DNA of 64,000 nucleotides. Source: a phage. Shown piece by piece: positions 1,883 through 59,398 of the stretch (within the stretch, counting starts at the first letter, position 1; every line of letters begins with the position of its first letter). The notes beneath the pieces are model-generated. The model was not told the DNA's origin. It did not search any database and saw only the letters and a list, made by a program, of their open reading frames with translations. Location: the sequence record PZ452581.1; one strand, 5' to 3'. A program made the translations under genes and the position numbers.

Positions 1883-1923
1883 AGTATTTTCCTCAGTAAG
1901 GGGCCGAAGCCCCTCATTTTATT

Positions 1924-18643: not shown

Positions 18644-18895
18644 TTATTGTTCAATCAGTCCCATGTAGAATTCTGCGTCTTCAGAATCCATGCCATCACA
18701 ATATTCATTAGCCATAAAGCGGGTGAGGTCTTCAAGAGGACCTTCAATGACAATAGAAAAATTGCAATAATTGGGATCATCATGAATACTTGTGATACTA
18801 AGTTCAGGATAACGATTACGAATAATCTCTTCAATATATTCAAAATCAACGATGTCAATATCAACTTTAGCCATATTATTTTCCTCTTTAATCAT
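18644..18895 (-). CDS. hypothetical acidic protein
   Basis: 83-aa ORF; promoter motif upstream at 18914-18947. Confidence 0.55.
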
Positions 18896-18913
18896 CAGCA
18901 GTATTGCCGATAG

Positions 18914-18947
18914 TTGTATAGTACCATAAAGCTTTATGCTTGTAAAC
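18914..18947 (-). promoter_or_regulatory. early promoter-like element
   Basis: Minus strand GTTTACAAGCATAAAGCTTTATGGTACTATACAACTATC; part of a 75-bp module repeated at 36065-36145. Confidence 0.55.
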
Positions 18948-18970
18948 CGTTTTGTGAAAAAATTTTTGAA

Positions 18971-18997
18971 ATAAAAAAGGGGACCTCTAGGGTCCCC
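18971..18997 (-). terminator. intrinsic terminator downstream of gene 32
   Basis: GGGGACC-loop-GGTCCCC hairpin at 18979-18997 followed on minus transcript by U-run (plus A-run 18973-18978). Confidence 0.7.
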
Positions 18998-19019: not shown

Positions 19020-19928
19020 TTAAAGGTCATTCAAAAGGTCATCCAGGTCCGTGTCATCAGCACTAGATGAACTGCCAGAGCTTGAGCTCATAAAATCATC
19101 TTCAGTTTTTGTGTTAAAATCATCAACATTGAATGCATCCAAATCATCAGCAACTTTATCAGCTTTCTTAGCAGCAGTTGCAGCGGCACCGCCCATCACA
19201 GCAGTTCCCATAACTTGACCGAATTTAGTATTCAGTTCTTCAAACGATTTGAATTTATCTTTAGAAGTCATTTCAGAAAGGTCAACCATTTGTTCGAACA
19301 GTTCTTTCTGGAAAGATTCATCGTCAATGTTTGGAATCGCAGATTGATTCAGGAATTTAGATTCGTCGTAGTTACTAAATCCAGAAACTTGTTTAACTTT
19401 CAGTACAAAGTTAGCACCTTCCCACGGACAAGTTACATCAACCGGAGTTTCACCCATTTCAACATCAACTGCAATCATTGCGTTGATTTTATCCCAGATT
19501 TTCTTACCGAAACGGTATTTAAATACTTTACCTTCATTTTCTGGAGCAGCTGGGTCTTTTACTACAAGAATGTTAGCCCAGTAAGAAGTTTTACGTTTAA
19601 CAAGACTGTACTCTTTATTGTCAGTGTTGTACAAATCATTTTTACTGATGTACTGACATACTGGACAAGAATCGTAATCACCGTGGGTAGATGAGCAATT
19701 TTCGATATACCATTTACCGTTTTTCTTGAAACCGTGATTTACAAGAATTGCGAATGGTGCTTGTTCATCATTTTTAGACGGAAGAAAACGAATTACTGCT
19801 TGACCGTTACCCGCATTGTCGAGTTTCAGTTTCCACTCGCCTTTATCTTCAGAAGAAAAACCACCTTTATTTCCAGCCAATTTAGCCATTTGTGCAGCGA
19901 GTTCAGCAGTAGATTTACGTTTAAACAT
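19020..19928 (-). CDS. 32: single-stranded DNA-binding protein
   Basis: 302 aa; [17 protein letters not shown]..., acidic Ser/Asp-rich C-terminus; recognised as T4 gp32. Confidence 0.95.
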
Positions 19929-20000
19929 TTTTATTTCCTTTTTAATTTAATTAACAGTTGGTGCTATGACGATGTATGACCTCATAGCTGGTCAGTGAGA
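19929..20000 (-). promoter_or_regulatory. gene 32 translational operator leader (pseudoknot region plus unstructured UUAAAUUAAA tract)
   Basis: Minus strand reads ...GCTATGAGGTCATACATCGTCATAGCACCAACTGTTAATTAAATTAAAAAGGAAATAAAAATG, matching the T4 gene 32 autoregulatory leader as I recall it. Confidence 0.6.
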
Positions 20001-20012
20001 TAATTATAATCT

Positions 20013-20020
20013 ATTTATAA
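20013..20020 (-). promoter_or_regulatory. late promoter TATAAATA upstream of gene 32
   Basis: Exact TATAAATA on minus strand. Confidence 0.5.
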
Positions 20021-20027
20021 TAAGCAA

Positions 20028-22293: not shown

Positions 22294-25200
22294 ATGGCCG
22301 AGATTAAAAGAAAGTTCAGAGCAGAAGATGGTCTGGACGCAGGTGGTGATAAAATAATCAACGTAGCTTTAGCTGATCGTACCGTAGGAACTGACGGTGT
22401 TAACGTTGATTACCTAATTCAAGAAAACACAGTTCAACAATACGATCCAACTCGTGGATATTTAAAAGATTTTGTAATCATTTATGATAACCGCTTTTGG
22501 GCTGCTATAAATGATATTCCAAAACCGGCAGGAGCTTTTAATAGCGGGCGCTGGAGAGCATTACGTACTGATGCTAACTGGATTACAGTTTCATCTGGTT
22601 CATATCAATTAAAATCCGGTGAAGCTATTTCGGTTAACACTGCAGCTGGTAATGATATTACATTTACTTTACCATCTACTCCAATTGACGGTGATACTAT
22701 CGTTCTCCAAGACATTGGAGGAAAACCTGGAGTTAACCAAGTTTTAATTGTAGCTCCAGTACAAAGTATTGTAAACTTTAGAGGCGAACAAGTACGTTCA
22801 GTACTAATGACTCATCCAAAGTCACAGTTAGTTTTAATTTTTAGTAATCGTCTGTGGCAAATGTATGTAGCTGATTATAGTAGAGAAGCTGTAGTTGTAA
22901 CACCAGCGAATACTTATCAAGCGCAATCCAACGATTTTATCGTACGTAGATTTACTTCTGCTGCACCGATAAATATTAAACTTCCGAGATTTGCTAATCA
23001 TGGCGATATTATTAATTTCGTCGATTTGGATAAATTAAATCCGCTTTATCATACAATTGTTACAACATATGATGAAACCACTTCAGTACAAGAAGTTGGA
23101 ACTCATTCTATTGAAGGCCGTACATCTATTGACGGTTTCTTGATGTATGACGATAATGAGAAATTATGGAGATTATTTGACGGGGACAGTAAAGCACGTT
23201 TACGTATCATAACAACTAATTCAAACATTCGTCCAAATGAAGAAGTTATGGTATTTGGTGCGAATAATGGAACAACTCAAACAATTGAGCTTCAGCTTCC
23301 AACTAATATTTCTGTTGGTGATACTGTTAAAATTTCCATGAATTACATGAGAAAAGGACAAACAGTTAAAATCAAAGCTGCCGGTGAAGATAAAATTGCT
23401 TCTTCAGTTCAATTGCTGCAATTCCCAAAACGTTCAGAATATCCGCCTGAAACTAAATGGGTAACTGTTCAAGAATTAGTTTTTAACGGTGAAACTAATT
23501 ATGTTCCAGTTTTACAGCTTGCTTATATAGAAGATTCTGATGGAAAATACTGGGTTGTACAACAAAACGTTCCAACCGTAGAAAGAGTTGATTCTTTAAA
23601 TGATTCTACTAGAGCAAGATTAGGCGTAATTGCTTTAGCTACACAGGCTCAAGCTAACGTCGATTTAGAAAATTCTCCACAAAAAGAATTAGCAATTACT
23701 CCAGAAACATTAGCTAACCGTACTGCTACAGAAACTCGTAGAGGTATCGCAAGAATAGCAACTACTGCTCAAGTGAATCAGAACACCACATTCTCTTTTG
23801 CTGATGATATTATCATCACTCCTAAAAAGCTGAATGAAAGAACTGCTACAGAAACTCGCAGAGGTGTTGCAGAAATTGCTACTCAGCAAGAAACAAACGC
23901 AGGAACAGATGATACAACCATCATTACTCCTAAAAAGCTTCAAGCTCGTCAAGGTTCTGAATCATTATCTGGTATTGTAACTTTTGTATCTACTGCAGGT
24001 GCTACTCCAGCTTCTAGCCGTGAATTAAATGGTACGAATGTTTATAATAAAAACACTAATAATTTAGTTGTTTCGCCAAAAGCTTTGGATCAATATAAAG
24101 CTACTCCAACGCAACAAGGTGCAGTAATTTTAGCAGTTGAAAGTGAAGTAATTGCTGGACAAAGCCAAGAAGGATGGGCAAATGCGGTTGTAACGCCAGA
24201 AACGTTACATAAAAAGACATCAACTGATGCAAGAATTGGTTTAATTGAAATTGCTACGCAAAGTGAAGTTAATACAGGAACTGATTATACTCGTGCAGTC
24301 ACTCCTAAAACTTTAAATGACCGTAGAGCAACTGAAAGTTTAAGTGGTATAGCTGAAATTGCTACACAAGTTGAATTCGACGCAGGCGTCGACGATACTC
24401 GTATCTCTACACCATTAAAAATTAAAACCAGATTTAATAGTACTGATCGTACTTCTGTTGTTGCTCTATCTGGATTAGTTGAATCAGGAACTCTCTGGGA
24501 CCATTATACCCTTAATATTCTTGAAGCAAATGAGACGCAACGTGGTACACTTCGTGTAGCTACACAAGTTGAAGCTGCTGCAGGAACATTAGATAATGTT
24601 TTAATAACTCCTAAAAAGCTTTTAGGTACTAAATCTACCGAATCGCAAGAAGGTGTTATTAAAGTTGCAACTCAAGCTGAAACCGTAGCTGGAACATCAG
24701 CAAATACTGCTGTATCTCCAAAAAATTTAAAATGGATTGTGCAGAGTGAACCTACTTGGGCAGCTACTACTGCAATAAGAGGTTTTGTTAAAACTTCATC
24801 TGGTTCAATTACATTCGTTGGTAATGATACAGTCGGTTCTACCCAAGATTTAGAACTGTATGAGAAAAATAGCTATGCGGTATCACCATATGAATTAAAC
24901 CGTGTATTAGCAAATTATTTGCCATTAAAAGCAAAAGCTGCTGATACAAATTTATTGGATGGTCTAGATTCATCTCAGTTCATTCGTAGGGATATCGCAC
25001 AGACGGTTAATGGTTCACTAACCTTAACCCAACAAACGAATCTGAGTGCCCCTCTTGTATCATCTAGTACTGCTACGTTTGGTGGATCAGTTTCGGCAAA
25101 TAGTACATTAACTATTTCTAATACTGGAACGGCAACTCGTCTGATTTTTGAGAAAGGACCTCAAACTGGAACTAACCCAGCACAGACGATGACTATCAGA

Positions 25201-35066: not shown

Positions 35067-35392
35067 TTAAACCATCCTTTAATACGTTGCCACAAAGTTT
35101 TCTGCTGAGCTCTGTTAACACCAATTGAACGAATAACCGGTTGAGATTCCTGGAATTCTTTATAATCAGCAAGGTAAATTTCGTAAGCTGCATCCGTAAA
35201 TGAACTTATCGCTGCCATAAAATTATTACGAATACCTACTGGAGCATCTTTACTTTCACGAATAATCATGTATTTACCAGTCTTAATCTTTACGATAGTT
35301 CCAAGATAAGCTCCATGATACCAGATGTCCCACCCCTCTTGAGTGGGTTCTGCGCAACGACGAAGTTCATTGACAATTTCTAACTTGTTCAT
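35063..35392 (-). CDS. hypothetical protein (motA.1-like)
   Basis: 109-aa ORF. Confidence 0.55.
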
Positions 35393-35402
35393 TATTTATT
35401 CC

Positions 35403-36038
35403 TCACAGTTCAGATGCTACAGTGATTACAGCTTCAATGTTTTCTGCCGAGCGTTTAATGTCAAGATACACATTACCGTTTTTAGCGATTTTACAAGACA
35501 TTCCGATATCAGTAAATTTCTGAATATGATGTTCCATCATTTTGTATCCAAAAATTCGCATGTTTCCATTGTTGTTAATTTCAAAATTGCGAATTCCGTG
35601 AGTGCGTTTTTCTAAAATAGCAAGATAATTACTACGATAAGTTTCAACCTTTTTAAGAACAAATCCATTTTCATCTAAAAGTTTTAACATGAAGTCTTTA
35701 TCTTCTTCCATATCAGAAGTAATCTCACGAGCTTTACGAGTAGCACGTTTTTTCAGCAGTTCCGGAGCGTTTTCCTGTGCGTATAAAGTTGCTGCGTTTG
35801 AAATAATATCTTGCGCTTCGCCTGTGATGATTAATCCATCACCTGATTTCTCTACCAGGCCTTTTTTAATCAATACCCCAATATTACTATTAACTACTGC
35901 GTTACCTAAATCTGGATGCACCTCACGAACTTCTGCAGCTGTAATGAAATCTTTCTTAGCAATGGTAATTAAAATCGCAGCAGTTTTTTCATTCAGAACA
36001 TCGTTAGAAGCTTTGATGATGTAAGTTACTTTAGACAT
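35403..36038 (-). CDS. motA: middle-transcription activator
   Basis: 211 aa; recognised as T4 MotA. Confidence 0.9.
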   Translation of the reverse strand: MSKVTYIIKASNDVLNEKTAAILITIAKKDFITAAEVREVHPDLGNAVVNSNIGVLIKKGLVEKSGDGLIITGEAQDIISNAATLYAQENAPELLKKRATRKAREITSDMEEDKDFMLKLLDENGFVLKKVETYRSNYLAILEKRTHGIRNFEINNNGNMRIFGYKMMEHHIQKFTDIGMSCKIAKNGNVYLDIKRSAENIEAVITVASEL

Positions 36039-36075
36039 TTTCTAATCTCCGTAATTCTGTATCAGTAGTTGATAG

Positions 36076-36109
36076 TTGTATAGTACCACAGTATGCTTTG
36101 GTTGTAAAC
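36076..36109 (-). promoter_or_regulatory. early promoter-like element upstream of motA
   Basis: Minus strand GTTTACAACCAAAGCATACTGTGGTACTATACAACTATC. Confidence 0.55.
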
Positions 36110-36130
36110 CGTTTTGTGAAAAAAATTTTT

Positions 36131-36162
36131 GAAATAAAAAAGGGAGAGCCGAGGCTCTCCCT
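36131..36162 (-). terminator. intrinsic terminator
   Basis: GGGAGAGCC-GAG-GGCTCTCCC hairpin followed by U-run on minus transcript. Confidence 0.7.
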
Positions 36163-36167
36163 AAAAA

Positions 36168-36317
36168 TTACTGCATGACTGTGATAACTGTCATGATAAC
36201 ACGTTGAATTCCGAACGCAAGAAGACCTCCTGCTACGGCTGGAACAACACCTAAACCCGCCAGTAAAATGCTACCGGATACTAATGCAGCGCTTGTAATA
36301 CCTATGAATGGACTCAT
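36168..36317 (-). CDS. small hydrophobic membrane peptide (49 aa)
   Basis: ATG overlaps gene 52 stop; sequence MSPFIGITSALVSGSILLAGLGVVPAVAGGLL...; below track cutoff. Confidence 0.4.
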   Translation of the reverse strand: MSPFIGITSAALVSGSILLAGLGVVPAVAGGLLAFGIQRVIMTVITVMQ

Positions 36318-37642
36318 TTGATTTCCTCTAAATCTTTAGTGTATTCGGTAACTACATCAGTAGTTTTCCAATATTCGTTTTCTTCTTTCTTAGCTTTAGC
36401 TTCTTCAGCAAGTTTCTTTGCTTCGTCGGAAGTCATATGAAAAATATTCATTCCGACTAGTTTATCAACATAAGAAGAATACATCTCAATTTTAGAAAGT
36501 TCTTCGGTCAGTTCTTTACGAGTTTTACCTTGAACAACAATTTCACCTGAAATTACTTTCTTAATGAAATGTGCCTTGGCAAAGGCTAAACGAAAAGCTG
36601 ACTCAGTTTCTTTGATTTTGTTATCAATTCGTTTTTGGACATAAGTTTTACGAACTTCAACAAAGTCTTTAATTAAATCAACTACGTTATCGTAAACTTG
36701 CAGTTTTCCTTTCTCATTAATGACGGTAATATTCTGAGAACGACGCTCAATCAACCCGAAGTCTTTCATAATTTTTGCATGGCGTTCTTCTTCATTATCG
36801 CTCAAAGAATATTCTTTACGGAATTTAACTTTGAATCCAAAACCATGCTCACCACAAGCATCATCCCATGTAATGAAGCCTTTATCTTCAAGTGGGTCTA
36901 AGATTTTACTCACATAAGTTTCACGATCATACTTATACGGAATCTCAGTGATATGCATTTGAGTTCGTGAAGTAAACTTATATGTTCCACGAATTTCATA
37001 TTGCCCATCAATTTCAACGACTTCACCACGAAATTCTGGGAATTCTACCTTCGGTTTAGTTACTTTCTTTCCTTGAAGAGCTTGCAGTACAGCTTTCTTA
37101 ACAGAAGAAACACTATGAGGAAGAATGTAAGTTGCATAACCAGTTGCAATACCGGAAACGCCATTAAGAAGAACAGTAGGAATAATAGGCAAATAGAAAG
37201 CAGGCGGAATGTGTTCTTTATCTTGATGTACCGGAGCATATTCAGTATCTTTATATACGTTATAGAAATTTTTACTTACACGAGCAAAAATATAACGACT
37301 TGCTGCTGCTTTTTGGACGGTACGAGAACCAAAGTTTCCTTGACCATCTAACAGAGGAAAGTTATTATTCCAAGTGTTAGCCATCAAAGCACCTGCGTCT
37401 TGCGCAGAGTTTTCACCATGATGATATCCAAGGTCCGCTACACCACCTGCAATAGAAGCAAGTTTGTGAAACTTATCTTTATTTCCTCGTGCCAAATCAA
37501 GAGCTCGAGCAATAACAAATCGTTGGACTGGCTTAAATCCGTCAATCATATTTGGGATAGCACGATTTTCAACCGTGTACATAGCATAAGCCAATGCTTC
37601 ATTATCAATGATACTTTTTAAATCGCGATTATTCAGTTGCAT
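36314..37642 (-). CDS. 52: DNA topoisomerase II medium subunit (GyrA-like)
   Basis: 442 aa; recognised as T4 gp52. Confidence 0.9.
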   Translation of the reverse strand: MQLNNRDLKSIIDNEALAYAMYTVENRAIPNMIDGFKPVQRFVIARALDLARGNKDKFHKLASIAGGVADLGYHHGENSAQDAGALMANTWNNNFPLLDGQGNFGSRTVQKAAASRYIFARVSKNFYNVYKDTEYAPVHQDKEHIPPAFYLPIIPTVLLNGVSGIATGYATYILPHSVSSVKKAVLQALQGKKVTKPKVEFPEFRGEVVEIDGQYEIRGTYKFTSRTQMHITEIPYKYDRETYVSKILDPLEDKGFITWDDACGEHGFGFKVKFRKEYSLSDNEEERHAKIMKDFGLIERRSQNITVINEKGKLQVYDNVVDLIKDFVEVRKTYVQKRIDNKIKETESAFRLAFAKAHFIKKVISGEIVVQGKTRKELTEELSKIEMYSSYVDKLVGMNIFHMTSDEAKKLAEEAKAKKEENEYWKTTDVVTEYTKDLEEIK

Positions 37643-39194: not shown

Positions 39195-39216
39195 TTTTGT
39201 TCCTCCGTAGTTGATA

Positions 39217-39251
39217 GTTGTATAGTACCACGGAAGAACAGTCTTGTAAAC
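39217..39251 (-). promoter_or_regulatory. early promoter-like element
   Basis: Minus strand GTTTACAAGACTGTTCTTCCGTGGTACTATACAACTATC. Confidence 0.55.
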
Positions 39252-39436
39252 AACTTTTTTAAAAATATTCGTAATAAATGTGAATACCAACTACTACCGC
39301 TGAAACCTGTGCAACCCACCACGCACAAGCAATAAGTACAGAATTCAAAATTTTCATAATAACCTCATTACAAAAGTAAATGTTAAACAAATTACTGGAA
39401 TACTAATTAACCAAACAAAACACCACCACAGTGAAC

Positions 39437-39700: not shown

Positions 39701-39729
39701 TTTCCGCTCCAAATCCGTATCAGTTGATA

Positions 39730-39764
39730 GTTGTATAGTACCACGGTCCTTGTGGTATGTAAAC
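39730..39764 (-). promoter_or_regulatory. early promoter-like element
   Basis: GTTTAC then TGGTACTATACAACTATC on minus strand. Confidence 0.55.
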
Positions 39765-39783
39765 TGTTTTGTGAAATTTTTTT

Positions 39784-40341
39784 TTAAATGGAAAGATACC
39801 ATCCGTTGTAGTTGCTTTTTCTTACAACCTTACGAAGGTCTTCTCTGTCACCGATGAACTTCGGAGTGTACTGGATGACACCTGGATGAATTTCTTTAGT
39901 GTTGAATATAATTATACAGTCAGCGACTTGATGATTTAGAATGGGCCCTAAATTTATTCCAGAACCATATGGATACTCTCCGCTGCATCCCGTTGTTACC
40001 GAAATCCAACGCGAGTCAGTTTGATGTGTCTTAACTTCTACACGAAGCCCACAGTATTTTGGATGTGCTAAAACATCCCATGCATATGTGTACGGATCAT
40101 CGACATCTTCTTGGCCTTTATTGACATATCCGCTTAGCCAATCTGCCACAAAAAACTCTGCGTACACAGCGATACGGCATCTTTCGATAACTTCTGCCTT
40201 ATCCTGATTTGGATTTTGTTTTAAAGAGTATCTTGCTGTATCAGCAATTTTGACCTTCATTTCACTAGTCAAGTCACTGTTCGATAGGGTAAATGTCGGA
40301 ATCTGAAATAGTCTCTGTAAACCCGGATTCGTTTTCTGCAT
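39784..40341 (-). CDS. denB: endonuclease IV-like (assignment by size and synteny)
   Basis: 185 aa between rIIB and ndd block, as T4 denB. Confidence 0.65.
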   Translation of the reverse strand: MQKTNPGLQRLFQIPTFTLSNSDLTSEMKVKIADTARYSLKQNPNQDKAEVIERCRIAVYAEFFVADWLSGYVNKGQEDVDDPYTYAWDVLAHPKYCGLRVEVKTHQTDSRWISVTTGCSGEYPYGSGINLGPILNHQVADCIIIFNTKEIHPGVIQYTPKFIGDREDLRKVVRKSNYNGWYLSI

Positions 40342-40397
40342 TAAACTTTCCTTTTACGTCGGAATCACTGATATTCATACAATAAATCATAGTTTCC

Positions 40398-40424
40398 CTT
40401 AAAACAAAAGGGCCGAAGCCCCTT
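40398..40424 (-). terminator. UUCG-loop hairpin plus U-rich tail
   Basis: GGGC-UUCG-GCCC core followed by UUUUGUUUU on minus transcript. Confidence 0.5.
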
Positions 40425-40427
40425 ATT

Positions 40428-40622
40428 TTATTTGAATTGTGCAATTCTTTTCTCTAGACACTCAGCATAAGATTTCATTGAGATGAACTGTGAAAGCAGC
40501 AGTTCTTGCTCAACTGCACTAACCGTTAGAAACTTTGTGCTTTCTAAAAATTTGCTCAGTGCATTAATTTTGAGCATTAATTGATCGTATTCTTCTTTTA
40601 CTCGTGCTTGATAACCTAACAT
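40428..40622 (-). CDS. hypothetical coiled-coil protein
   Basis: 64-aa ORF bracketed by two UUCG-loop hairpins. Confidence 0.5.
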   Translation of the reverse strand: MLGYQARVKEEYDQLMLKINALSKFLESTKFLTVSAVEQELLLSQFISMKSYAECLEKRIAQFK

Positions 40623-40654
40623 AATTTTCCTTAATATGATAAGGGCCGAAGCCC

Positions 40655-41593
40655 TTATTTAAATTGTTCAGTAACGTCTTCAACTACTTCGTATTGGCAG
40701 GTACGCATTTTAGCATCGTTGTAATCAATCGGAATTGATACTACATCACGTGGATGTACTTTAACTTTTACAACTCGGCTGGTTGAACTGCCAAAGTGAC
40801 GAATATAAGATTTAGAACACACATGCAGACCACGAGAACAAGTTTGTGTATCATCGTCATTCACACGAGTACGCGGCATTTTAACTACTTTACCAGGACT
40901 GTTATCAAAGGTGTTTGAGTGACAGTCAAAGTAGTTGTCACGAACTACTTTCCAAGCATAGAAGTAACCATCTTCTGTAATTTCAATATCGTTTGCTACC
41001 AAGAAATCAAAGAGTCGAGATACCGCTTTCTGGCTTGGGTTTTCCAGCAGATTTTCCAAGAACGGAAAATAAAATTCAAAGTTTTCACCTTTTTCCATCG
41101 AATCGAGAATACGATCAACTAAACCAGACCGTAATTCGATATTTTGATAGAACAAGCTTCCGCCTTCAATTCGAACATCGCCGGAAATATATTTTTCAAC
41201 AGCGCGACGAACATTAATTTTTTGTGCCGCTTCTTCCAACTTATCTGCTACAAGCAGATTAAGAATTTCCTGGAAGTTTGAATGAGTATTAGGAGTTGCG
41301 TTATAAGTTACACCGTCAACAGTAATTGAAATGAATTTTTTAGATGCATTCCAAATAATGTCAGATTTAGCAACTGGAGCAATAACTGCATCGCTATTAA
41401 CTTTAACTGTAATATCACCGCTAATAGTAACTTTAGAGCGTTTAGCTTCTTCAGCATTTTTCAAAACACGACGGATTGTGTCAACCGATACACCTTGCCA
41501 ATCAGCTAATTCCTGTTGGGTGTAATTACCACTTGAATACAATTTAACAATTTCAGCTTGTTCGTTTTTGGTCAGGCATTTAATATTGTACAT
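40655..41593 (-). CDS. rIIB: rIIB membrane-associated protein
   Basis: 312 aa, directly downstream of rIIA; length and synteny match T4. Confidence 0.85.
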   Translation of the reverse strand: MYNIKCLTKNEQAEIVKLYSSGNYTQQELADWQGVSVDTIRRVLKNAEEAKRSKVTISGDITVKVNSDAVIAPVAKSDIIWNASKKFISITVDGVTYNATPNTHSNFQEILNLLVADKLEEAAQKINVRRAVEKYISGDVRIEGGSLFYQNIELRSGLVDRILDSMEKGENFEFYFPFLENLLENPSQKAVSRLFDFLVANDIEITEDGYFYAWKVVRDNYFDCHSNTFDNSPGKVVKMPRTRVNDDDTQTCSRGLHVCSKSYIRHFGSSTSRVVKVKVHPRDVVSIPIDYNDAKMRTCQYEVVEDVTEQFK

Positions 41594-45871: not shown

Positions 45872-45937
45872 TTATCCTCGTTTGGTTTCGGGAATATTAT
45901 ACTCCGGTAATCATAAAGCTAAAGGCCCGAAGGCCTT

Positions 45938-46210
45938 TTATTTAAAACGGATAGTCGAATCCTTGAAGAATAGACCAGAACATACTGTTCCTTCTACTTT
46001 CTGCCCGGTAGGTCCAATAGCACGAAATCCAGTATGTTGGAAATCATTTTCAGAGCAACCGAACCAATTATATCCAGTGATTTCAATATTAGTAAAACCG
46101 CTTGAAGACAAAATTTTGGTTGCATTATCAGCATCAGTACATCCTACTAAAGATACTGCTAATACTAATGCTGCGATAGAACGATTAACATATTTCATAA
46201 TTTCACTCAA
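45938..46210 (-). CDS. putative lipoprotein
   Basis: 90 aa; signal peptide with lipobox SLVGCT. Confidence 0.55.
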   Translation of the reverse strand: MSEIMKYVNRSIAALVLAVSLVGCTDADNATKILSSSGFTNIEITGYNWFGCSENDFQHTGFRAIGPTGQKVEGTVCSGLFFKDSTIRFK

Positions 46211-47685: not shown

Positions 47686-47770
47686 GTTGTTTTCTGTATC
47701 AGTAGTTGATATTGATATAGTACCATAATCAACTACTGATGTATATAGTTTTATGAAAAAATTTTAAACT

Positions 47771-56589: not shown

Positions 56590-56649
56590 AGTGCTCTCCT
56601 CTATAAGATAATTCTATTATACCATACTCATTTTGATATGTAAACTGCA

Positions 56650-56680
56650 AAAACGAAAAAAGGAACCCCGAAGGATTCCT
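56650..56680 (-). terminator. intrinsic terminator downstream of soc
   Basis: Hairpin AGGAACC-CCGAA-GGAUUCCU followed by U-run on minus transcript. Confidence 0.6.
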
Positions 56681-56686
56681 TAAATT

Positions 56687-56944
56687 TTAACCACCAATAC
56701 CTGGAGTTGGCGTAACAGTCCAAAGACCTTCATTAGCAGTGATCCATTCAGTACGCTGATTTTCTTCATATACTGTAGAATATGCTGCTTTTTCAGAAGG
56801 GAATGTCTGATAATGAGCACCAGAAATTTTGTGAACATCAGAATAAAGAGGGAAAGCTACAGAAATTTCTTTACCCTGAATTGTACCACCATCAACTGCT
56901 TGGTCAAATGTTTTGATATTAACATAACCGCGAGTACTAGCCAT
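56687..56944 (-). CDS. soc: small outer capsid protein
   Basis: 85 aa; MASTRGYVNIKTF...ISVAFPLYSDVHKISGAHYQTFPSEKAAYSTVYEENQRTEW recognised as Soc (diverged from T4 at both ends). Confidence 0.9.
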   Translation of the reverse strand: MASTRGYVNIKTFDQAVDGGTIQGKEISVAFPLYSDVHKISGAHYQTFPSEKAAYSTVYEENQRTEWITANEGLWTVTPTPGIGG

Positions 56945-59187: not shown

Positions 59188-59352
59188 TTACTCTTCTTTT
59201 TCTTTAGATTCCTCTTTTTTCTTTTTAGGAATCTGTTCAGGGCCTTTATTTACTACAGCGCCTGACGTTGTTCCAGTAGAGATATTTTCAGGATTACCAC
59301 CTGAATCTCCAGCGACCATATCTTCTTTGATAAATTCTTTATATGTTTTCAT
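59188..59352 (-). CDS. small hydrophilic Lys/Glu-rich protein (54 aa)
   Basis: ATG overlaps stop of upstream ORF (TAATATG); below track cutoff. Confidence 0.35.
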   Translation of the reverse strand: MKTYKEFIKEDMVAGDSGGNPENISTGTTSGAVVNKGPEQIPKKKKEESKEKEE

Positions 59353-59398
59353 ATTAACCTCTATTCATAAAAGCATTAAAAATTTGGTCATCAATAGA
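59350..59398 (-). repeat. 49-bp junction-cassette direct repeat, copy 1
   Basis: CATATTAACCTCTATTCATAAAAGCATTAAAAATTTGGTCATCAATAGA; second copy at 59708-59756 with 1 mismatch. Confidence 0.8.

Follow-up and report, generated by a model that had tools for sequence, protein, structure and literature searches.

The intergenic region ahead of motA raises the question why a regulatory module found there recurs elsewhere in the same phage genome, and what this module does for the gene that follows it. We address this question for a T4-like phage of the genus Tequatrovirus, of which a stretch of 64,000 nucleotides (the window) was analysed. The original prediction described positions 36065-36162, here copy 2, as the second copy of a promoter-terminator module at 18905-18997, here copy 1. 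Around copy 2, the identity to Enterobacteria phage Aplg8 is 98.7%, and matches at 95-99% are found in about 500 Tequatrovirus records. Early genes of the window are encoded on the minus strand, and the ORFs around copy 2 are those of T4, all on this strand. Gene 52, a small membrane ORF downstream of it and motA had been named as neighbours, and the ORF list together with the T4 and Aplg8 annotation supports these identifications. The small ORF, annotated MotA.1 in T4 and Aplg8, belongs to phrog_3487, whose function is not known, and closes the transcription unit of gene 52 that lies upstream. Both copies are intergenic on the minus strand. Copy 2 is flanked by the stop of motA.1 (36168) and the ATG of motA (36038), copy 1 by the stop of gene 32 (19020) and the ATG of frd.3 (18874). 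The features discussed below are collected in Table 1.

Table 1. Elements of the module, its gene neighbourhood and its dispersed relatives. Positions refer to the window unless T4 is named.
Feature	Position	Strand	Description or basis
Gene 52	36314-37642	-	ORF list, T4/Aplg8 annotation
motA.1	36168-36317	-	49 aa, predicted membrane/periplasmic peptide; stop codon 36168-36170
Copy 2, terminator hairpin	36141-36162	-	A-GGGAGAGC-CUCG-GCUCUCCC-U; 9 pairs (6 GC), 4-nt loop; terminator scan and folds
Copy 2, T6 (U6) tract of terminator	36136-36141	-	Sequence, terminator scan
Copy 2, UP element	36113-36129	-	AAAATTTTTTTCACAAA; ends 4 nt ahead of the -35 hexamer, roughly -56 to -40
Copy 2, -35 element	36103-36109	-	GTTTACA; hexamer TTTACA 36103-36108; promoter and consensus scans
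Copy 2, spacer	36102-36086	-	17 nt; final three bases TGG
Copy 2, variable part of spacer	36089-36102	-	ACCAAAGCATACTG, 14 nt; alignments
Copy 2, extended -10	36080-36088	-	TGG + TACTAT; TACTAT 36080-36085; promoter scan reports TG
Copy 2, start box	36071-36079	-	ACAACTATC; conserved
motA 5' leader	36039-36070	-	About 32-35 nt, starts just outside the end of 36065-36162; GGAG Shine-Dalgarno 36047-36050
motA	35403-36038	-	211 aa, activator of middle-mode transcription; ATG 36036-36038; gene driven by copy 2
arn.4, arn.3 and further genes	Next to motA	-	ORF list
Gene 32	19020-19928	-	Upstream of copy 1; stop at 19020
Copy 1 module	18905-18997	-	Gene 32 terminator, T6, promoter, start box, frd.3 leader
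Copy 1, hairpin	18979-18997	-	GGGGACC-CTAGA-GGTCCCC; gene 32 terminator
Copy 1, T6	18973-18978	-	Sequence
Copy 1, -35 hexamer	18941-18946	-	Consensus scan
Copy 1, -10 hexamer	18918-18923	-	Consensus scan
frd.3 homologue	ATG at 18874	-	Downstream of copy 1
Promoter-only paralog	39711-39794	-	79% over 90 nt; UP element, GTTTACA, TGGTACTATACAACTATC, same leader type; corresponds to T4 denB>ndd.6
Promoter-only paralog	39204-39278	-	73% over 77 nt; corresponds to T4 ndd.5>ndd.4
Partial (promoter-only) copy	47692-47765		BLAST within window
T4 composite copy	T4 163.7 kb		motA.1>motA
T4 composite copy	T4 146.9 kb		32>frd.3
T4 composite copy	T4 55.4 kb		nrdC.11>nrdC.10; outside the region covered by the window
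T4 promoter-only paralog	T4 27.1 kb		Upstream of imm.1
T4 promoter-only paralog	T4 70.7 kb		Upstream of e.8
T4 promoter-only paralog	T4 167.1 kb		Upstream of ndd.6

Read in the direction of transcription, copy 2 opens with a hairpin that starts 6 nt past the motA.1 stop codon and ends 32 nt ahead of the -35 hexamer. Its predicted stability is -18.6 kcal/mol, and the surrounding 171 nt fold with a z-score of -4.9. The terminator scan finds 4 terminator-like sites in 2 kb where 1.0 is expected. With a GC-rich hairpin, a U-run directly behind it and a position past a stop codon on the transcribed strand, the element has the sequence features of an intrinsic terminator. It shares with intrinsic terminators, including that of T4 gene 32, the perfect GC-rich stem, the short loop, the U-run of 6, the location few nucleotides past a stop and the unidirectional layout. 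At this hairpin no plus-strand terminator is listed by the scan, and TAAAAATT takes the place of a T-run. Termination thus seems to be confined to minus-strand transcripts. A rho-independent terminator is also annotated here in Aplg8 (three terminator calls) and in Yersinia phage fPS-90. Hairpin and T-run very probably constitute the intrinsic terminator of the gene 52/motA.1 message, a reading that we hold with high confidence jointly with that of the motA early promoter and the cassette class described below. The T6 tract runs on into ATTTC and an A/T tract, so that the terminator tail abuts the UP element of the promoter. Unlike in ordinary intrinsic terminators, the U-run thus continues into the UP element, and one A/T tract may serve both functions.

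The promoter that follows is complete in all its elements. Its UP element matches 14/14 specified positions of the consensus AAAWWTWTTTTNNNAAA, and a score of at least 13 is reached by just 0.14% of random 35-mers drawn from the window. This consensus is reportedly the one of Estrem et al. 1998. The entire interval 36113-36141 is A/T-rich. Judging from the spacing, transcription would start near A36073, 7 nt past the -10 element. The start box ACAACTATC recurs unchanged in copy 1 and in five other promoters of T4 (7/28 listed T4 promoters in all). Throughout the window, TTTACW-N16-18-TAYWAT is matched 16 times where 1.07 matches are expected, and 16/16 lie on the minus strand. UP element, GTTTAC at -35, TGn and -10 on the early-gene strand are the sequence features of a T4 early promoter (Pe).

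T4 early promoters have been described as 'uber' promoters of the UP/-35/TGn/-10 type, in which further positions are conserved as well (PMC2988021). All four recognition elements of this class (Hinton 2010, PMC2988021; lists by Wilkens and Rueger are cited there) are present in copy 2. For T4 motA, Uzan, Brody and Favre 1990, as cited in PMC2988021 and PMC3014915, reportedly mapped the transcription start and found it to be active when no phage protein is made. Copy 2 and this T4 promoter show no substantive difference; each lies on the early-gene strand and serves an early product. Window and T4 are identical from the -35 element through the motA ATG, and further upstream the window departs from T4 by an extra T before the hairpin, TC for GA in the loop, and a T-to-C change plus an extra T in the A5T6 tract. 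From the T4-identical core and the consensus matches, promoter and terminator activity would be expected in the window phage as well. The predicted content of the module is borne out by the terminator scan, the TTTACW-N17-TAYWAT match, TGn, the UP element and the annotation of Aplg8 and of fPS-90, where terminator and 'predicted early promoter' are given at this locus. The name promoter-terminator module has both parts right, but on the minus strand the terminator is transcribed first and the promoter follows. Likewise, the module does come after motA.1 as proposed, but rather than lying upstream of the motA promoter it contains this promoter.

Further information is contained in the motA leader. 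Here, GGAGATTAGAA agrees at 10/11 positions with GGAGRAYARAA, the consensus of strong RegB sites, in which the cut falls between the two G and AG (GG*AGRAYARAA; PMC3014915). The site combines a GGAG in the initiation region of an early gene with an A-rich RAYARAA-type sequence after it, and the four GGAG bases are unpaired or weakly paired in predicted folds. In T4, MotA is made early, and RegB cleaves its mRNA within the Shine-Dalgarno sequence (PMC2988021); time-resolved transcriptomics detected motA RNA 1 min after infection (PMC9697503). The first 16 nt of the leader (AACTACTGATACAGAA) are common to the leader of T4 e.8.

The relation to copy 1 is strongly supported. In a gapped alignment, 44/45 aligned columns are identical, with one 1-nt gap in the T run. 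This block reaches from CCC-TTTTTT through GGTTTACAA and comprises the last CCC of the hairpin, T6, ATTTCAAAAA, T6-7, CACAAAACGG and TTTACAA. A second block of 18 nt in the -10/start region, TGGTACTATACAACTATC, is identical in the two copies. When the window is searched with copy 2 by local BLAST, copy 1 is returned at E = 3e-19. The longest exact word common to both is 25 nt; in 200 shuffles, this length averaged 12 and never exceeded 17. In the 60-nt stretch that precedes -35, the ungapped identity of copies 1 and 2 is 0.65 versus a mean of 0.33 (sd 0.08), and they are the top pair among the 14 N17-spaced early-promoter matches of the window. Copy 2 can be regarded as a true second copy, as had been predicted. 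Stem and spacer differ. The stems are GGGAGAGCC/GGCTCTCCC in copy 2 and GGGGACC/GGTCCCC in copy 1, both pairing perfectly, and the 14-nt spacer parts are unrelated; ACCAAAGCATACTG is the sole promoter segment in which copy 2 departs from copy 1.

The repeat itself stands, but the number of two copies does not. Besides two full copies, the window holds at least three partial, promoter-only ones, and T4 contains a third composite copy. Scanning T4 with copy 2 over 1-78 kb and 120-169 kb, we find three full composite copies with a common hairpin, T6, UP and -35 junction; the stem sequences of these three paralogous hairpins differ, and each pairs perfectly. For the nrdC.11>nrdC.10 copy, the annotation of U76612 gives terminator, -35, -10 and 'early promoter 54.4'. 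The promoter-only paralogs of T4 agree with these in UP/-35 and in the extended -10/start box, and in many cases in the leader too (AACTACTGATAC...). At 39711-39794 in the window, no GC-rich terminator is found directly upstream. A second composite subfamily, at T4 15.3 kb and 58.8 kb and with a window member at about 56644, is characterized by TCGGGAG[T/A]C, a T-run and CATTT..GGTTTACTTTCC. BLAST with the 106-nt module gives 7-8 places per Tequatrovirus record, and beyond the genus its matches cover the promoter part only. An exact-pattern IMG/VR scan for the UP/-35 junction yielded 6 loci, which were too few, and GenBank phage records were used for the comparisons.

Traces of exchange between these copies are seen at the gene 32>frd.3 locus. 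We compared both loci in nine Tequatroviruses (window, T4, LF73P3, BCH953P4, PST, T2, RB27, Ec_O157kw and SHFML-11). Between constant flanks, copy 1 occurs with three versions of its 14-nt spacer. In the window and T4 the spacer is AGCATAAAGCTTTA, which matches the T4 nrdC.10 promoter at 14/14 positions (at most 117 records). Six of the nine phages carry TCCTTGTCCTTCCA (TCCCTGTTCTTCCA in RB27), matching the T4 e.8 promoter at 13/14 (at most 336 records), and LF73P3 carries TACCACAAGGACTG, matching the T4 ndd.6 promoter at 13/14 (at most 48 records). These counts are upper bounds from BLAST coverage and together account for about all of the roughly 500 records. Since the spacer alleles match paralogous promoters at 13-14 of 14 positions where variation is free, they point to short-patch ectopic exchange, that is, ectopic gene conversion, and not to convergence.

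The same matches bear on the possibility that two unrelated regulatory regions came to look alike through the constraints of RNA polymerase and terminator function. T4 early promoters do have an unusually long common consensus (PMC2988021), and stems and spacers of copies 1 and 2 differ, both of which would favour convergence. However, the 44/45 identity includes positions outside the known contacts, namely ATTTC between T-tail and A tract, CACAAAACGG and ACAACTATC. For the other early promoters of the window, the mean identity over this region is 33-38%. Constraint cannot account for the spacer matches either, as the spacer may otherwise vary freely. We consider convergence very improbable. 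The dispersal of the copies, with 7-8 BLAST places in each Tequatrovirus genome, could instead be ascribed to an autonomous mobile element, MITE-like or associated with a homing endonuclease, that spreads by its own insertion, and not to a regulatory cassette passively moved by general recombination. Homing endonucleases are abundant in T4, and the motA locus is polymorphic for a cassette. Yet the copies lack terminal inverted repeats and target-site duplications, they all sit on the early-gene strand in functional positions, past a stop and before SD + ATG, and the ORF list shows no endonuclease gene adjoining copy 1 or copy 2 in the window. Homology breaks are specific to each copy, and this mosaic fits homologous exchange rather than transposition. 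Lacking defined ends and target duplications and occurring in functional positions only, a self-mobile element was rejected as exceedingly unlikely.

Two further explanations concern what copy 2 does rather than where it comes from. On the plus strand, the spacer reads TGCTT at 36094-36098, and as an inverted MotA box this pentamer could let MotA repress its own promoter. AAGCA is present in the spacer of all three composite copies, the motA spacer is nearly invariant among the phages compared, and early gene expression is up in motA mutants (PMC2988021). Against this, the pentamer is found in 3/28 T4 early promoters, compared to a background of 7.7% per 29-mer, and two of these three promoters have an identical spacer. 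The pentamers of copies 1 and 2 lie at non-homologous positions, and the match is poor outside TGCTT. With a pentamer frequency equal to background, autorepression through this site was discarded and has, in our view, hardly any likelihood. We give the least credence to a small non-coding or structured RNA, with the hairpin as the 3' end of an sRNA or with a plus-strand antisense RNA starting from TTGATA-17-TATGCT (36069-36097). This promoter-like site scores 9/12 and lies upstream of the hairpin on that strand, and weak, sub-threshold matches to Rfam sRNA families overlap the hairpin. In a scan of 35300-36900 at E<=1, however, no Rfam family reaches its gathering score; the matches are driven by the hairpin, and the top overlapping one has 24 bits versus a gathering score of 56. 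The promoter-like sites in the region number 5 versus 6.4 expected, which is chance level, and the plus-strand hairpin is followed by TAAAAATT without a T-run. The antisense RNA was rejected on these two grounds. On the minus strand, the hairpin is located 6 nt past a stop codon, where an mRNA terminator would be expected.

The preferred reading of copy 2 as terminator plus early promoter has a counterpart in the literature, the PeSLs (promoter-early stem-loops; Arbiol 2010, Comeau 2014). By its sequence, copy 2 is a member of this described class combined with a described T4 early promoter, and is as such already known, because it fits both. According to PMC2839356 and PMC4122927, a PeSL begins with an upstream stop codon, which is followed by a stem-loop, by an AT-rich tract and early promoter, and finally by SD and ATG of the downstream gene; PeSLs are repeated in the genome and tied to indels between close relatives. 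For PST/T4, the promoter consensus given in PMC4122927 is TTTACW-N17-TAYWAT. Copy 2 has TTTACA-N17-TACTAT at 36108-36080, with the hairpin just upstream, between the motA.1 stop and the GGAG and ATG of motA. It is repeated, in full and partial copies, in the window, T4 and Tequatrovirus records. Insertions and replacements are represented by a cassette in 138/528 records, by the spacer alleles of copy 1 and by two promoter-only paralogs (39204-39278 and 39711-39794) that bracket the ndd.4/ndd.5 segment. Comeau et al. 2014 (PMC4122927) describe an exchange of this segment between PST and T4 that involved integration of a PeSL mini-circle.

Architecture, intergenic repetition and insertion/replacement polymorphism of copy 2 are thus the same as in PeSLs of the PST/T4 type. 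Unlike PeSLs among ORFans, copy 2 lies beside the well-known genes 52 and motA. Its stem GGGAGAGCC/GGCTCTCCC contrasts with the 'AGNA-loop-TCNT' that the PeSL authors call frequent in PST. Mini-circle formation by recombination between neighbouring copies was demonstrated for PeSLs of RB49/phi1, and not for T4-type cassettes. Taken together, we are highly confident that copy 2 represents a terminator and the motA early promoter with a RegB-cut leader, arranged as a PeSL-type cassette.

How this cassette came to lie ahead of motA may be read from the comparison of related phages. In 138/528 related phage records, an extra ORF-plus-promoter cassette is found behind the motA.1 terminator. It consists of a module promoter (with the AGCATAAAGCTTTA spacer) and a 75-aa ORF of phrog_10955, a family without assigned function. 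Behind these come a weak stem-loop and, before motA, another early promoter as the second of the cassette. The 23-nt leader CTATCAAATAAATGAACTGAAAC is duplicated at both ends. Like morons and integron-like cassettes, in which a gene comes with its own promoter and terminator, this locus of the LF73P3 type holds a single small ORF with its own promoter between transcription signals. In contrast to integrons, there is no integrase and no attC, and insertion apparently occurred via promoter/leader repeat homology (CTATCAAATAAATGAACTGAAAC). The second promoter of the extra cassette (GTTTACTTCTGCT...ATGATACTATAGACCTATCA) has clear orthologues ahead of motA in Mosigvirus ESh15 and Tegunavirus TG1, and its region and ESh15 also have a stem-loop in common. 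The 75-aa ORF was considered as ancestral in Mosigvirus ESh15, but the ESh15 ORF upstream of motA is not homologous to it.

Copy 2 of the window and T4 is not orthologous to the ESh15/TG1 motA promoter; similarity to motA-specific sequence begins about 4 nt before the SD. It groups with the dispersed frd.3/nrdC.10/e.8/imm.1/ndd.6 family. A simple deletion of the LF73P3 type to give the T4/window arrangement is ruled out, as spacer and leader differ, and at least two exchange events are therefore needed. The most economical reading is that a paralogous module has probably replaced the ancestral motA promoter in the T4/window lineage. Exchange at the motA copy is rare, because its spacer is invariant in 8/9 phages. 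As direct repeats, the two full copies of the window are separated by 17 kb that include essential genes, and since a deletion between copies 1 and 2 would be lethal, only events of the conversion type could survive.

The terminators carry a different kind of change. The motA.1 terminator stem is invariant in 9 Tequatroviruses and its loop alternates between TC and GA. It reads CC-TC-GG in the window, Aplg8, PST and RB27, and CC-GA-GG in T4, T2, teqskov, Ec_O157kw, SHFML-11 and LF73P3. In the gene 32 terminator, the loop is either ACC-CTAGA-GGT or ACC-TCTAG-GGT, with all five loop positions changed. Both hairpin loops thus switch to their reverse complement between phages, which single inversions by template switching within the hairpin would explain far better than multiple substitutions. 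We also considered concerted evolution of the two copies via the T/C site in ATTT[T/C]AAAAA, where T4 has T/T and the window C/C. The other 7 phages show no co-variation at this site, and this proposal was dropped.

For the function of copy 2, the following sequence of events is proposed. Hairpin and U6 would stop transcripts arriving through ac, 52.1, 52 and motA.1, and would thereby insulate motA from upstream, later-acting transcription. At the abutting, very strong sigma70 'uber' promoter, unmodified host RNA polymerase would produce a burst of motA mRNA right after infection. RegB would then cut the GGAG Shine-Dalgarno sequence of the leader, so that MotA synthesis is over after the first minutes. 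At the level of DNA, the approximately 45 + 18 bp common to paralogous copies could serve as substrate for phage homologous recombination. This would lead to ectopic gene conversion over short patches and to the insertion or replacement of cassettes, as proposed for PeSLs. Comparative patterns suggest this role in recombination. That recombination of cassette copies is an ongoing process appears to us rather likely, at clearly lower confidence than the assignment of terminator and promoter.

Copy 2 would set the timing of MotA and with it the early-to-middle transcription switch of T4-type phages. Spacer alleles, cassette insertion, the probable promoter replacement and loop inversions are the sole parts of this picture that go beyond the literature found, and they strengthen an existing hypothesis. 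The footprints described here lend sequence-level support, within the T4 group, to cassettes as the proposed 'linkers' of modular gene shuffling. We see about even chances that the T4/window motA promoter is non-ancestral and that the cassettes are actively swapping 'linker' sequences by short-patch ectopic conversion. If this is true, cassettes overwrite each other and, beyond shuffling ORFans, could rewire the control of a master regulator.

Both terminator hairpins of the module, motA.1 and gene 32, carry a loop that occurs in two forms, each the exact reverse complement of the other, with the form varying by Tequatrovirus (the window and loci L009 of T4, L016 of LF73P3, L017 and L019–L023). 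For gene 32, all five loop positions are changed between the two forms, while in the same Tequatrovirus loci the stems of both hairpins remain unchanged. Judged from the sequences, the loop variants at the two terminators are inversions, and intrastrand template switching is the probable route by which they arose.

Coordinates of the features compared in the window and at related loci
Feature	Location	Strand	Remark
motA.1 terminator loop	window 36150-36153		TC/GA among Tequatroviruses
Gene 32 terminator loop	window 18986-18990		CTAGA/TCTAG among Tequatroviruses
frd.3 promoter -35/-10 spacer	window 18927-18940		14 nt
Gene 32/gene 59 gap	window 19929-20027		99 nt only
Inserted cassette, LF73P3 type	L016 18690-19175		corresponds to window 36039-36135
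motA upstream region, Klebsiella phage KP185 (Jiaodavirus)	L025 277-401
motA upstream region, Mosigvirus ESh15	L027 297-401
Second terminator-plus-early-promoter subfamily, window member	window ~56616-56690	-
Terminator-like hairpin family	window 1884-1923, 40393-40432, 40626-40665, 45907-45946
49-nt direct repeat	window 59350-59398, 59708-59756
Gene 34 (proximal long tail fibre) internal repeats	window 23695-24620	+

A stem-loop immediately 5' of a GTTTAC-type early promoter also lies ahead of motA in KP185 and ESh15, and the GGAG SD of motA is shared by both. Because these stem-loops are followed by A-rich sequence with no T-run, they lack the appearance of a canonical intrinsic terminator. 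In 138 of 528 related records, a cassette is inserted between the motA.1 terminator and motA. It consists of the module promoter, a 75-aa ORF (phrog_10955) and a second early promoter, with a 23-nt leader present once at each end. By sequence comparison, the promoter orthologous to those of motA in Mosigvirus and Tegunavirus is this second one. At the gene 32 locus, T4 and PST carry the homing endonuclease gene segG between genes 32 and 59; segG is absent from the gap of the window, and also from RB27, T2 and SHFML-11.

A further set of cassettes, arranged as a ..TCGGG.. hairpin, a T-run and GGTTTACT/GTTTACA, forms a second subfamily, distinct from the motA/frd.3 module; T4 has two closely similar copies, at 15.3 kb and 58.8 kb. 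The window also holds four near-identical terminator-like hairpins of the GGGCC-GAAG-CCC type, each followed by a T-rich tail and without an attached promoter. The two copies of the 49-nt direct repeat are 98% identical and lie 358 nt apart. Since the - strand of the repeat contains an SD and an ATG as well as a MotA-box-like AATGCTTTTA, a module of middle promoter and translation start may have been duplicated here before two adjacent small genes. Gene 34 contains direct repeats of 69 nt and 29 nt that are 65-83% identical and presumably encode repeated structural motifs.

The spacer of the frd.3 promoter, compared at the loci listed above for the hairpin loops, occurs as three alleles, found in at most 117, 336 and 48 of about 500 phage records. 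One allele is matched at 14/14 positions by the spacer of the T4 nrdC.10 promoter, and the T4 e.8 and ndd.6 spacers each match their own frd.3 allele at 13/14. This correspondence between alleles and paralogous promoters indicates that dispersed promoters have undergone ectopic gene conversion over short patches.
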